Below, one piece after another: positions 340 to 62,195 of a stretch of DNA of 64,000 bases (position 1 is the stretch's first letter; each line of letters opens with the position of its first letter). The notes under the pieces are model-generated. The model worked only from the letters and a program-made list of their open reading frames with translations, was not told where the DNA came from and made no database searches. The stretch is from positions 44,518-108,517 of the IMG/VR virus record IMGVR_UViG_3300013383_000020; one strand, 5' to 3'. The DNA is from a virus (taxonomy: Duplodnaviria; Caudoviricetes). The position numbers and the translations under genes were made by a program.

Positions 340-367
340 ATATAAAGAAACGGAAAATTCAAAGAAA
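340..367. repeat. dif-like dyad site (aagaaa-cggaaa-attcaa)
   Basis: Near-consensus copy just after a stop codon. Confidence 0.5.
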
Positions 368-404
368 TATTCGCAAAAGTCAACTTTGCGAATATTTCTT
401 TGAA
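358..404. repeat. Perfect 20-bp inverted repeat, 7-bp spacer
   Basis: ttcaaagaaatattcgcaaa-agtcaac-tttgcgaatatttctttgaa. Confidence 0.95.
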
Positions 405-485
405 ATAATATTACACGTGTCAAGAGAATAAATAAGAGGTTGATTAATTCGATCTCTTATTTTGATGGAAAGGAGATTGATAAAA

Positions 486-686
486 ATGCGATATGTAATA
501 AGGAATAGACATGCTGGGAATTTCATTGATGAATATGATGATAAAAATAAGGCAATTTATACGTTGGATTTATTTGAAGCACAGGATTTAATTGATGGAA
601 TTTATGAACCACACTTTTATGAAGTATATGACACTGTAAATGAAGAATCAATTTACGAAGGGAGATATCCTAATGCCAATATTTGA
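486..686 (+). CDS. hypothetical protein
   Basis: ORF with aaggag RBS. Confidence 0.65.
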   Translation: MRYVIRNRHAGNFIDEYDDKNKAIYTLDLFEAQDLIDGIYEPHFYEVYDTVNEESIYEGRYPNANI

Positions 687-879
687 TTTGTCCGGTTGGA
701 ATGTGAAAACATGGAAATATAATTCACGGAATGTTGAAGAACAGCTACATAAAAAGAATGCTTGGATTGCAAAGAATTACAAACGGTATCAAATTGAGGA
801 AATATATGTAGATGGAGCATGGGCAATACAGTACAGAAGGAGGGAAAAAAATGGAATATGTGAGTTGTGTTGTGGATGA
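673..879 (+). CDS. hypothetical protein
   Basis: ORF with gggag RBS. Confidence 0.6.
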   Translation: MPIFDLSGWNVKTWKYNSRNVEEQLHKKNAWIAKNYKRYQIEEIYVDGAWAIQYRRREKNGICELCCG

Positions 880-994
880 ACTTGGAACACCAATGTATCG
901 AGTGTCGTACTTGGAACAACGAGGATGTTTAGATGAAGTATTAGATAACCATCCTGAATGGAGAGTTATATGTTTGCTGTTTGGAGAGGAGTGA
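851..994 (+). CDS. hypothetical protein
   Basis: ORF with aaggagg RBS. Confidence 0.55.
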   Translation: MEYVSCVVDELGTPMYRVSYLEQRGCLDEVLDNHPEWRVICLLFGEE

Positions 995-1089
995 TTGTAT
1001 GTATATAGCTCAAATGCCAAAAGTTATAACAAAGAAATAGTAGAGAATATATAAATATGGTATAATTAAACTGAAGGAGGTTGATTTAG

Positions 1090-1305
1090 ATGGGAGTTTT
1101 AATTTTAATAATTATTGTAATTGTTCTTATAAGTTTAATTTTGAGTGATCCAGGAACAAGTAGTTCAACAACTACAACAAAATATACACCACAACGTAAG
1201 TTCGGTGATGGAGCAAGTATGTATGATTTTAAGGATTATGTAAATACAAAAGCAGACAAACACTTGAAAGAAATGGAAGCGAAGAGAGAAAATAAATTTA
1301 GATAG
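1090..1305 (+). CDS. small membrane-anchored protein
   Basis: Hydrophobic N-terminus, aaggagg RBS. Confidence 0.7.
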   Translation: MGVLILIIIVIVLISLILSDPGTSSSTTTTKYTPQRKFGDGASMYDFKDYVNTKADKHLKEMEAKRENKFR

Positions 1306-1313
1306 AATAGAAA

Positions 1314-1979
1314 GTGAGGTCGATGATTATGTTAGGAGCATTATTATATGGAGCAATGTCAGCAGTGTGTGGACTTGGTAGAGCTGTTGATAACGAAAAA
1401 ACTAAAATAAATACTACACATGTGAACGAAAAGGGACAAACAGTGTATTATGATAGAAACTGTTGTTGCTATATAAATAACGAAAAGGTGTACAACTGGA
1501 CAGAAATTGATAAATATGGTCGTACACATCGACTAACAATCGGTATGAATAGTGGTCGTGTTTATAATGATACGTGGGATAAAATAACCACAGAAGATGA
1601 TTGTAAAACAAAAGAGTCATACGAGGATGCAGTTAGAAGAGGTTGGTTAGCTTATACAGATTATAGCGACTACAGATTTGCTTGCAATTCTGGTGTAACA
1701 AAAGAAATTAGTACAGGAAAAGTGATAAATTGTCTCGATGAAGTGTATAATCTTACAACAAGAAAAAAAGAGTATAGAAAATGGTATGTTACAGAAGCTG
1801 CATTAAAGGAACATGGGAAATATGCATATAAGAATACTGCAAAAGGTGATTACGGAATTGTAATTACGAAAGAAGAATATTGGAAACTTGGGGGTAAATG
1901 TGCATTTAATATGGCTCATACTCCAACAGATCGGATTGTATGGGAAAAATTATATGGAATAGGAGGCACACATGAATAA
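1314..1979 (+). CDS. hypothetical exported/membrane protein
   Basis: 221-aa ORF, hydrophobic N-terminus. Confidence 0.7.
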   Translation: MRSMIMLGALLYGAMSAVCGLGRAVDNEKTKINTTHVNEKGQTVYYDRNCCCYINNEKVYNWTEIDKYGRTHRLTIGMNSGRVYNDTWDKITTEDDCKTKESYEDAVRRGWLAYTDYSDYRFACNSGVTKEISTGKVINCLDEVYNLTTRKKEYRKWYVTEAALKEHGKYAYKNTAKGDYGIVITKEEYWKLGGKCAFNMAHTPTDRIVWEKLYGIGGTHE

Positions 1980-2219
1980 AGAACGCAGACGTAGTATTAA
2001 TAACATCAAGGCAAACATAGCAAGATTAAAGAAGGAATTGCAGATTTATCATCAGAATTATCTATTGTATTAGACCAGGAGCAGGACACATTTGATAATA
2101 TGCCAGAAGGATTACAAAGCAGCTACAGAGGAATGTGTTCTGAAGATGCTATTGATTCTATGGAAGAGGCAAGCGAAAAACTTGACGAAGTGATTGAGTT
2201 GTTAAATGATATTGTGTAG
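1972..2219 (+). pseudogene. frameshifted hypothetical gene
   Basis: MNKERRRS... continues in another frame as SSELSIVLDQEQDTFDNMPEGLQ...; span 248 nt. Confidence 0.65.
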
Positions 2220-59781: not shown

Positions 59782-59833
59782 TGTTGTGGTCAAGCTTTTT
59801 TGTAACACTACGACCTAATTTCTGCCACAGGGT

Positions 59834-60735
59834 TTATACAACCCCGTAGCGTGCCTCATAAGGCGTTTTGTAATTATTATAAGAATGCGGACGTACATGA
59901 TTATATTGTACATACGCAAATTCTTCGATAGCTGTGTAGAGTTCAGCTTCTGTATGATAATAATGCTGGTAAATAAGATCATTTTTCAACGTATTGAAAT
60001 ATCTTTCCATCGGAGCATTGTCATATGGATATCCTGCTTTACTCATACTTTGAGTAATACCGAGTTTCTCACAAAATTCAGTGAACTCTTTTGAAGTGTA
60101 CTGACTTCCTTGATCTGAATGAACCAGAAGCTTACTTAAATCGATTCCGGGTTGAGAATCAATAGCTTTCTCTAAGGTTCTTTTCGCTAAATCAGAGGTT
60201 ATATTTCTATCAGTTATGCTTGCAATAACACTTCGGTCATGTAAGTCAAGAATAGTACAATTGTAACGCTTGCTGCCATCTGTCAGAAAAAGATAAGTAA
60301 AATCTGTACACCATTTTTGATTGATCGCATCTGCATGAAAATGCTGATTCAGTTTGTTCTCATATACTTTATGCGCAACACCATGTTCATACTCCGGTTT
60401 CTTTTTCCTGGAGATTGAGAACAACTGCATTTCGGTATTCATATATTTGTGAACCGTTAAACGACTGATATCGTGTCCTGTACGAATCAGATATGCATGT
60501 ATGGTTCTATAACCATCAACTCCGCCATGAGAGTGATATATTTTTCGAATAGAGTTTTTGATTTCATCTTTCTTTTGATGATAATCAGCTTTTCGATTTT
60601 TAAGATAATTGTAATAAGCATTTGGGCAGATATTAAACTTCCTGAGAAGCCATCTAAGCCCAAATTCCTTGTTGTACTTTTGAATAAATCGATAAGCCTC
60701 TAATCGATTTCCTTCGCAAAGAATGCCGCTGCTTT
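59834..60735 (-). CDS. IS3 OrfB DDE transposase (expressed by -1 frameshift)
   Basis: WCTDFTY, HSDQGSQY, DNAPMERY; frame open upstream of 60442 where checked. Confidence 0.88.
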
Positions 60736-60993
60736 TTTTAGGAAGTCATTTTCCTTTTGAAGTTCTGCAAGTTGCTTTTTGAGCTGAAGATTCTCCTTCA
60801 TGTAATCATAATCGGCTTTGGCTTCTTTGTTAGTTTGGCATTCTTCACGGAATTGTTTTGTCCAATTTGAGATACTTGCATGCGATACTCCGTATTCTGC
60901 TGCAAGACCTTTGAGGGATCTTCCCTCTTCAAGATGAAGACGAACAATCTTCTTCTTGAATTCTGGTTCATAATGTTGATTCATCTGTAACAT
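60700..60993 (-). CDS. IS3 OrfA
   Basis: YEPEFKKKIV HTH; LKKAAAFF. Confidence 0.9.
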   Translation of the reverse strand: MLQMNQHYEPEFKKKIVRLHLEEGRSLKGLAAEYGVSHASISNWTKQFREECQTNKEAKADYDYMKENLQLKKQLAELQKENDFLKKAAAFFAKEID

Positions 60994-61059
60994 ACCTCGT
61001 TTCCTCCTAAGATTATATCTTATTAGGTCGAGATGTTACAACTATGTTATATCACAACA

Positions 61060-61607
61060 GTAACATTAGAAGTGTTAAATTTATCTCCAATAATGACAGC
61101 GGCTGCATCAGAATCCATAAACATATGATCCATATTCTTAACGTTAGAAGTATCAAACTTATCTCCCACAAAAATATTTCCCTTTAAACTGCACTCTGCA
61201 AACATGCTATCCATACGCTTGACATTTGACGTATCAAATTTATCTCCTAGAGACAGCCCTTCTGGCAAGATACAGTCACAAAACATAGCTTCCATACTAA
61301 TTACATTGGAAGTGTCAAAATCTACTAACTTAAAACCTTCTGGTAGTTCACACCCATGGAACATATGACGCATATTAATGCATCCTTTAGGTAAGCTTAC
61401 CGAATTTCCCTTTCCCACGTAACATAAAAAATCATGTTCCTCATTACGGGAGTAACCCTCTCTCTCAGACGGCACAGTAGCAGTCTGACGAACCTTGAAC
61501 TCCTTAGGATCATACCAGAAGTCTCCTAGCTCTCCTTGATAATGAATTAGATCATCACTATTTCTTTCTCCAGACTCAGCTCTATTATCGCCAAAATCGA
61601 AGCTCAT
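61060..61607 (-). pseudogene. BspA/DUF285-type repeat protein truncated by IS3
   Basis: FDTSNVxxMxxMF repeats end at the IS boundary. Confidence 0.75.
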
Positions 61608-61747
61608 AGGAACTAAGCTTTTTCCAAATCTGTTGTTGTCATATCTTACCTCCTAAAACTCTATTTTTGCCATTGCTACAACACTATAGCTAGCACCATA
61701 CTAGCCGTACCCTATTATAAAATTTTTTGATTAACTCACGCTTCCTT

Positions 61748-61775
61748 TCCTAAGGAATCTCAGATTTATCAGAAA
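61748..61775. repeat. dif-like dyad site (aggaat-ctcaga-tttatc)
   Basis: Degenerate copy at stop of minus-strand ORF. Confidence 0.6.
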
Positions 61776-62119
61776 CTCAAGTCTGAACAATTTTCACATG
61801 TTCTTCCTTTATCGCTCAAACAAATAAGTTCTGTATATTTTCCGCAGCAATCGCAATATCCAAGAAGACTATTTCTTGTCCATTTTCCATTGATTTTGAC
61901 GTATCTGTGTTTGTAATTCTGCATGATTTCAGGGATTTTGTCAGAATATATAACAACTCTTGCGCCTGAATGAACACTTGTGTTTGATTCTACAAACACA
62001 ACCTTCTTTCCTTGTGATAAAATTTCATTTTGTCGCTTTTCTAATTTACCGTAGAAATCAAGTGAAGTAAAACTATAAATGATTTCATTATTTGATTCGC
62101 AACCATCATATAAATTCAT
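61769..62119 (-). CDS. hypothetical protein with C-terminal Zn motif (single-gene cassette)
   Basis: CDCCG...CENC; flanked by dyad sites. Confidence 0.7.
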   Translation of the reverse strand: MNLYDGCESNNEIIYSFTSLDFYGKLEKRQNEILSQGKKVVFVESNTSVHSGARVVIYSDKIPEIMQNYKHRYVKINGKWTRNSLLGYCDCCGKYTELICLSDKGRTCENCSDLSF

Positions 62120-62167
62120 AATATCCTCCCATCTTCAAATAAACCATCTACACATATTTGTTTCCTT

Positions 62168-62195
62168 TTCCTAGTAAATGCAAATTTCATATTCG
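62168..62195. repeat. dif-like dyad site (agtaaa-tgcaaa-tttcat)
   Basis: One mismatch, ttcct outer arm. Confidence 0.7.

Follow-up and report, generated by a model that had tools for sequence, protein, structure and literature searches.

The 64,000-nucleotide stretch of DNA analysed here (the window) corresponds to positions 44,518 to 108,517 of the virus record IMGVR_UViG_3300013383_000020 and represents the early arm of a ~150-kb temperate gut phage which has SPbeta-like architecture without belonging to the genus Spbetavirus. The window is punctuated by short dyad elements that consist of two arms flanking a 6-bp spacer and are placed at the junctions between genes. These dyads are most probably the sites of a tyrosine recombinase whose spacers act as addresses, allowing phages that reside in the same cell to swap individual genomic slots by cointegration and resolution, a reading that is drawn from genome comparison. 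Related phages carry the same spacers in the same order, homology between them switches at the spacer, close relatives differ by a clean swap of one cassette, and a segment bounded by matched inverted spacers occurs in both orientations.

The strict pattern ADGAAW-N6-WTTCHT matches 13 times in the window, compared with only 0-3 matches at gaps of 2-5 and 7-13 nucleotides, and a weight matrix applied at a threshold of at least 15 bits returns 20 sites in the 108.5-kb genome versus one in shuffled sequence. Information around the dyad reaches about 11 bp on either side of the 6-bp centre, and the arms of the 28-bp dyads have the consensus A[AGT][GT]AAA and TTTC[AT]T. A preliminary description of the window had proposed an 11-6-11 geometry, which agrees with the enrichment at a gap of six alone and with the extent of the information. 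The 11 strict sites that it reported all lie within the 13 matches, the two additional ones being located at 11936 and 57736; the latter scores below 6 bits and is taken as chance. Among the 23 sites that it listed 22 are upheld, the exception being position 50865, which scores -15, is not conserved in close relatives and is no site. The two arms are not interchangeable. At the fourth arm position one arm accepts T and the other keeps G, and T on both arms is found in 2 of about 500 distinct sites against about 13 expected. The side of the permissive arm is mostly fixed per address (spacer-level p 0.03), being the left at most addresses and the right at about six, with no alternation along the array. 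Such polarity would fit two different protomer roles, as in XerC/XerD, and shared descent could contribute to it.

The position of the dyads relative to genes was determined for 475 sites across relatives. An upstream stop codon lies within -18 to +30 bp of 82% of them (median 3 bp), a start codon led by a ribosome-binding site (RBS) follows within 45 bp of 67% (median distance 23 bp), and both features coincide at 57% of sites compared with 3% of random positions, bearing out the earlier observation that the dyads sit at or just after stops and before the next RBS. The resulting unit is laid out as right arm, RBS, gene or genes, stop and left arm. As also stated earlier, the replication module that is bracketed by two of the dyads has none between its genes; its interior is free of sites that score more than 9 bits. 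In the region 12001-32000, promoter-like and terminator-like elements are not in excess.

For comparison 21 related genomes were fetched, and 22 genomes entered a check for duplicate spacers; sites within structural genes which have a single allele on both sides were not counted as addresses. Scanning the related genomes with the weight matrix, as had been suggested, recovers the same array with spacers shared at the same rank. Near-complete genomes of group A mostly have 40-55 sites each, and 17 group-A genomes have at least 46 spacers in common, arranged in the same order, with 99 conflicts in 27,973 pairs (99.6% conserved order), the commonest of which involve a few early spacers. A further 36 records mostly carry the array and one subgroup lacks it; relatives poor in sites are G028, G054-G057, G062 and G063. 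When pairs of genomes with the same spacer are compared, both flanks are unrelated in 1503 cases, one flank is shared in 567 and both in 159. Conversely, of the cases with a common flank, 92% have an identical spacer, 5% a spacer with a single changed base and 3% a different one. Genes stay in their own slot between genomes. The proposal that unique spacers act as addresses is thus supported by ordered, shared spacers between mostly unrelated flanks. No identical or inverted duplicate spacer occurs among the strong sites within any of the 22 genomes, as expected from the suggested limit on self-deletion, although this absence has no significance by itself, given that one spacer set is common to the genomes (about one duplicate would be expected among independent addresses). 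Pairs of addresses with one mismatch are depleted relative to shuffling, both in direct (2 versus 6.9) and in inverted orientation (3 versus 8.6; p ~0.02 each). A four-gamete test is positive at only 8 of 56 spacers, a low yield that is due to too many alleles for the sample.

The sites of the window are as follows; 19 of the 23 listed earlier have a spacer that recurs, with all letters identical and at the same rank, in related phages.
345-362, plus strand: address site, spacer CGGAAA, with weak arms here; the spacer is present in at least 11 relatives at the same rank
2231-2248, plus strand: address site, spacer TAATAG, bounding on the left a cassette exchanged in close relatives
4618-4635, plus strand: address site, spacer CCAAGT
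11936-11953, plus strand: address site, spacer GGGTAG, absent from the earlier list, one mismatch to G005/G020
12578-12595, plus strand: address site, spacer ATTCTC
12892-12909, plus strand: address site, spacer GTTCGA
14998-15015, plus strand: address site, spacer TATTTT
16340-16357, plus strand: address site, spacer GCGGAA
16883-16900, plus strand: intragenic site, spacer GTCTAT, absent from the earlier list; may just be a conserved coding stretch
17643-17660, plus strand: address site, spacer CATAGA
18992-19009, plus strand: address site, spacer CCGAAG
24076-24093, plus strand: address site, spacer TTCAGG
24413-24430, plus strand: address site, spacer GCAACA
24696-24713, plus strand: address site, spacer CCAATC, at which the inversion has its left crossover
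24995-25012, minus strand: weak cryptic site in a coding sequence of the PAPS-reductase family, carrying the 24696 spacer inverted; right crossover
27321-27338, plus strand: address site, spacer TTTTTC
31113-31130, plus strand: address site, spacer GATTCG
31673-31690, plus strand: address site, spacer TATCGG
34999-35016, plus strand: address site, spacer CTGACA
36177-36194, plus strand: address site, spacer TCACTG, which brackets the replication module on the left
50924-50941, plus strand: address site, spacer GACGGA
54474-54491, plus strand: address site, spacer TTGGAC
61752-61769, minus strand: site variant that differs by one base from the CTAAGA address; given earlier as 61753, off by one
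62173-62190, minus strand: site variant that differs by one base from the TTCGCA address, part of the foreign piece that also contains 61752

The last two variants lie inside a foreign inverted piece beyond a junction in an insertion sequence (IS) of the IS3 type. Three address sites are abutted by a second repeated palindromic element (2264-2306, 16282-16324 and 34941-34983), presumably NrdR-box-like, which is likely to be a true operator separate from the dyads. A 91-bp element that precedes two different addresses, at 4530-4620 of the window and 44255-44344 of the genome (88% identical), is a cassette end occurring at two slots. Elsewhere, G009, G033 and G034, and likewise G008, combine the same arms with a wholly different spacer set; such sets are separate address dialects and hence probably separate exchange pools. 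In G016 two sites 23 bp apart (24927-24967, oriented) are located within a structural-arm gene of 1101 amino acids (aa), and one of them has several left and right alleles; the arrangement may permit domain swapping. The close relatives L250 and L252 carry a TnpB (IS605 OrfB) gene without a transposase (L250:2187-3452), the end of which lies 25 bp before an address site.

Where two genomes share one flank, identity remains at 0.85-0.9 up to the spacer and is down to background as soon as the degenerate positions of the far arm begin, so that the alignments place the crossover within the spacer or directly next to it. The ends of alignments are most frequent 5-9 bp beyond the centre of a site. 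Gene junctions with a site have 1.24 alignment ends each versus 0.23 at site-less junctions, and 75% versus 32% of junctions carry an end. Synteny breakpoints, named in the preliminary description as a check on its proposal, are thus enriched at the sites. At degenerate arm positions, pairs with the same spacer and unrelated flanks are barely more similar (0.44/0.63/0.75/0.53) than pairs with different spacers (0.35/0.62/0.71/0.36); the arms travel with the cassettes and not with the spacers. The junction-matched control was added since ends cluster weakly in G000 alone, with 11 of 114 clusters near sites.

Individual exchange events can be followed at three places in the window.
2249-4617, plus strand: cassette with a Bro-N antirepressor and T5orf172, exchanged in close relatives
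24699-25009, no strand assigned: invertible segment comprising the leader of a PAPS-reductase-family gene and ~61 codons from its start
36195-50923, plus strand: replication module encoding SSB, an AAA_24 protein, RecJ, DnaE and RecD2, occupying one slot

L249, L251 and L255 are 99.9% identical to the window through the 2231 spacer, contain another cassette which consists of RelB/PemK plus small genes, and resume identity at 4618. In the replication slot, polymerases of relatives at the same addresses are either 96-98% or just 22-27% identical. L266 and L268 carry a different replication module; at 50924 they have another left arm, and their identity to the window extends onward from the spacer. 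Genome comparison thus supports the predicted exchange of cassettes between related phages.

The inversion is, as far as contigs can tell, the nearest approach to seeing the reaction itself, and the earlier claim of an inversion between one matched pair proved real, with both orientations in contigs of several samples. The inverted orientation, which splits the gene, is found in the window, L256, L257, L259 and G016, and the gene-restoring orientation in L258, L260 and G021 and in sequencing runs X1, X3 and X5; L258 and L260 match the window at 100% except that 24699-25009 is flipped. The endpoints are the 24696 site and the cryptic site with the same spacer, which form the only matched spacer pair. 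Their shared core of 14 bp is shorter than assembly k-mers and too short for an assembler artefact to be likely, and the same strand-switch joints are present in X1, X3 and X5, which come from three studies (the runs, sampled as small shares of non-human contigs, were used for inversion joints only). The window orientation recurs in L257 and G016 on segments that are 93-94% identical, which implies that the segment has flipped at least twice. The gene-splitting inversion may be an on/off switch for the PAPS-reductase-family gene. In G021 the cryptic spacer has one mismatch and the segment is not inverted; G013 has no cryptic site. A GIY-YIG gene (25814-26620) is located in an apparent intron of the split gene region (24699-27253), and some contigs skip 25653-26789.

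It is proposed that each dyad is the core site of a tyrosine recombinase, in which two arms of ~11 bp flank the 6-bp region of strand exchange. Strand exchange would require matching spacers, and as each spacer occurs once per genome a phage would normally be prevented from deleting or rearranging its cassettes. If two related genomes meet in one cell, by superinfection of a lysogen or by co-induction, a crossover at one shared address would fuse them and a second at another address would resolve the cointegrate, exchanging everything between. Because units run from arm through RBS, gene and stop to arm, a crossover in the spacer would leave genes unbroken, and the net outcome would be a natural form of recombinase-mediated cassette exchange. 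An accidental inverted second copy of a spacer would instead give an inversion, as at 24699-25009. We infer the catalysis, the cointegrate route and the enzyme discussed below from this pattern.

Several observations weigh against this proposal. About 3% of shared flanks are found at another address and sites are gained and lost among genomes, neither of which strict spacer matching accounts for. The pair counts are not independent, which makes their p-values nominal. Only ~14% of all alignment ends are near sites and ~86% are elsewhere; most mosaic boundaries arise otherwise, by homologous recombination within genes, homing endonucleases and IS elements, and the sites explain only a part of the mosaicism. 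Neither excised circles nor cointegrates were found among the assembled contigs examined. Finally, among the phages with these arms no phage recombinase shows good conservation, allele identities being 22-99% for the candidate R2 and 44-96% for the candidate R3 (see below); identities of R2 down to 22% are hard to square with one specificity, which keeps a host enzyme in play.

Other explanations for the dyads have to be considered. The sites could be short conserved linkers for homology-based recombination by the phage, with the arms bound by a protein that does not cut. Sites at the same address have ~14 near-identical bases in common, and phage annealing proteins tolerate short homology; a candidate AAA_24 protein (37576-38739) is placed like the Sak4-like YorG of SPbeta, no single recombinase is conserved, and shuffling by promoter early stem-loops (PeSLs) likewise makes use of shared intergenic elements (PMC2839356). 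However, the degenerate arm positions are not common to the partners, the palindrome with its exact 6-bp gap, the arm polarity and the recurrent inversion at a 14-bp core typify site-specific exchange, and the sites persist while the replication module itself has non-homologous alleles, all of which renders the linker explanation improbable. No better placed is the idea that the sites serve primarily for resolution, with an Xer-like phage recombinase resolving genome dimers or cointegrates and gene exchange arising as a by-product. R2 is Xer-like, a close homolog of it shares an operon with an HU-like protein, and in a dimer every address would be matched; yet one site would be enough for resolution, and 40-55 per genome, located at gene junctions and mostly in the accessory arm, fit selection for exchange better. 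This explanation is compatible with address-coded exchange and does not exclude it. Least probable are operators of a phage repressor, the alternative raised in the preliminary description: although SPbeta MrpR is a repressor of tyrosine-recombinase fold acting on a repeated intergenic element (PMC10516654) and R3 sits in an immunity-like locus, an operator has no reason for a private spacer between unrelated flanks, the stop-to-RBS position leaves no room for a promoter, regions of MrpR peaks in SPbeta carry a different motif (10 of 10, with the N6 dyad in only 3 of 10), R2 and R3 keep all the catalytic residues that MrpR has lost, and the inversion weakens the case further.

If address-coded exchange is catalysed by a tyrosine recombinase, complete genomes offer three of these, namely the terminal integrase, R2, which is encoded close to the late genes, and R3 of the window.
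5290-6321 of the window, plus strand: R3, tyrosine recombinase consisting of the catalytic domain only, without an N-terminal core-binding domain
22032-23066 of the genome, outside the window, minus strand: R2, YomM family, candidate enzyme

R2 is tentatively placed first among the candidates. It is present wherever its region is covered, keeps the catalytic residues R, HxxR, H/W and Y in 11 alleles, and has an Xer-like architecture with an archaeal XerA as best solved match. YomM of SPbeta matches the R2 profile with an E of 1e-57 and is 32% identical to one R2 allele. R3, which the preliminary description had named as the recombinase to assay, is not the best candidate and is unlikely to act, either alone or with R2. 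Its residues R57, K87, H232, R235, H262 and Y271 (numbered from 5281) are intact, and its immunity-like locus includes an adjoining helix-turn-helix (HTH) gene and a MazF/PemK-like gene. It is missing in G011 and G012 despite 30 or more intact sites there, another Xer-like recombinase being located in its place; it has no tblastn match among INPHARED phages, no solved relative below an E of 0.3, no similarity to YopP/YopR and no counterpart among the three recombinase-fold proteins of SPbeta. A single-sequence AlphaFold model of R3 had a mean predicted local distance difference test score (pLDDT) of 39 and was discarded. A host Xer-like protein is about as likely as R3. A search of 251 Clostridia genomes for a dif that matches the consensus gave 26 scattered hits with unrelated spacers and no shared dif-like match. 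Some other enzyme has a still smaller chance of being responsible. An extra tyrosine recombinase of ~300 aa occurs as cargo in the slot before CGGAAA in G012 (14253-15140) and G024 (84561-85466, both oriented).

A parallel array exists in SPbeta, which has 29 TAAAA-N6-TTTTA sites versus 0-2 at other gaps, and phi3T carries such an array too; the two phages have common ordered spacers between changed flanks. The spacers at SPbeta 99492 and phi3T 89334 are mutually reverse-complementary, a possible inversion or reversed site. We lean towards the view that SPbeta-like phages encode an address-coded exchange system of their own that spans the genome. It would be run by a YomM-family recombinase, perhaps paired with another one, on dozens of orthogonal sites; any slot, from a single small gene up to the entire replication module, could be exchanged between co-resident phages, and selection on the spacer set would avoid self-recombination.

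The window itself is arranged as an immunity-like locus, accessory genes, the replication module and nucleotide genes, and the phage resembles SPbeta in gene order and homologs (YomM, YonJ, the HU-like YonN, YorF, DnaE, RecJ and a terminal integrase). Identical proteins are found on contigs of up to 540 kb, which indicates that relatives integrate; annotations point indirectly to a host among the Lachnospiraceae, perhaps Blautia. Four tRNA genes (Gln twice, Met and Lys) lie in 7691-12171, and an Rfam search found tRNAs only. An IS110 insertion at 52700-53840, which is absent in L266 and L268 and not at a dyad site, has a cluster member annotated from Blautia wexlerae. The window tracks the near-identical L266 only to 60637, inside the IS3 (region 59834-64000). 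Beyond this point L266 continues with nrdD, nrdG, dUTPase and integrase genes, and the window with the inverted piece, which resembles the early arm of another phage and contains the two address variants and a DUF285 gene; this is probably a chimeric join or an IS-mediated rearrangement.

Engineered recombinase-mediated cassette exchange uses heterospecific lox or FRT sites. Like these, the phage dyads combine common arms with differing spacers that would act as orthogonal addresses, a double crossover swapping the cassette; unlike them, the array is natural, genome-wide, has at least 46 addresses and degenerate arms. The closest natural counterpart is the plasmid dif (pdif) of Acinetobacter Rep_3 plasmids, which is recombined by XerC/XerD; in these plasmids cointegrates form and resolve at matched spacers, and one module at a time is thereby replaced (PMC13141974). 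Both have the 11-6-11 geometry with one strict and one variable arm, recombine at identical or near-identical spacers, replace modules and invert between matched inverted sites; the phage sequences are consistent with matched-spacer recombination, as the inversion uses the sole matched pair and swaps end at shared spacers. The label dif-like used earlier therefore holds for the geometry and not for the arms, which do not match the XerC/XerD boxes of the pdif table (PMC13141974). The phage sites further differ in their number (40-55 on a phage chromosome rather than a few per plasmid), in having unique spacers at fixed rank with order conserved rather than shuffled, in lacking a strict C/D-D/C alternation and in an enzyme that is probably phage-coded. 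Integrons also contain promoterless gene units between recombination sites, but their cassettes are excised and moved to the front whereas phage cassettes keep their slot. No attC hairpin, attI or IntI was detected (the recombinases match PF00589 and phage integrase families only, and no dedicated attC model was used), and the earlier comparison with integrons fails on these parts and on cassette reordering. T4-type PeSLs resemble the dyads as repeated intergenic elements that bound accessory phage genes and allow modular shuffling; they differ in being promoter-terminator cassettes which recombine within a genome and give mini-circles, rather than recombinase-type dyads with private spacers (PMC2839356). 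The SPBRE/MrpR system likewise pairs a repeated intergenic motif with a recombinase-fold protein in an SPbeta-like phage, yet SPBRE is a different motif found at about ten sites at promoters and MrpR is catalytically dead (PMC10516654). The difSL/XerS and difH/XerH systems show similar A/T-tract arms resembling GAAA..TTTC and a single-recombinase asymmetry, and differ in having one chromosomal site beside its own gene with an extra A/T pair inside the arms or a longer centre (PMC5357621). Taken together, the phage system appears to work like the Acinetobacter pdif modules and yet is neither pdif, integron nor PeSL. No published account of these phage sites or of yomM was found in a search mostly outside subscription papers.

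Phage mosaicism is usually ascribed to illegitimate or relaxed homologous recombination that is filtered by selection, and to our knowledge the older idea of dedicated linker sites for phage modules has lacked a general mechanism. If the interpretation given here is correct, the dyads would be linkers of this kind that carry their own addresses, in an abundant group of gut phages, and the parallel array of SPbeta makes the question testable with existing B. subtilis genetics. They would also provide a natural set of orthogonal recombination sites, possibly with a new recombinase, for genome engineering, and would account for the movement of methylases, toxin-antitoxin pairs and entire replication modules between these phages.

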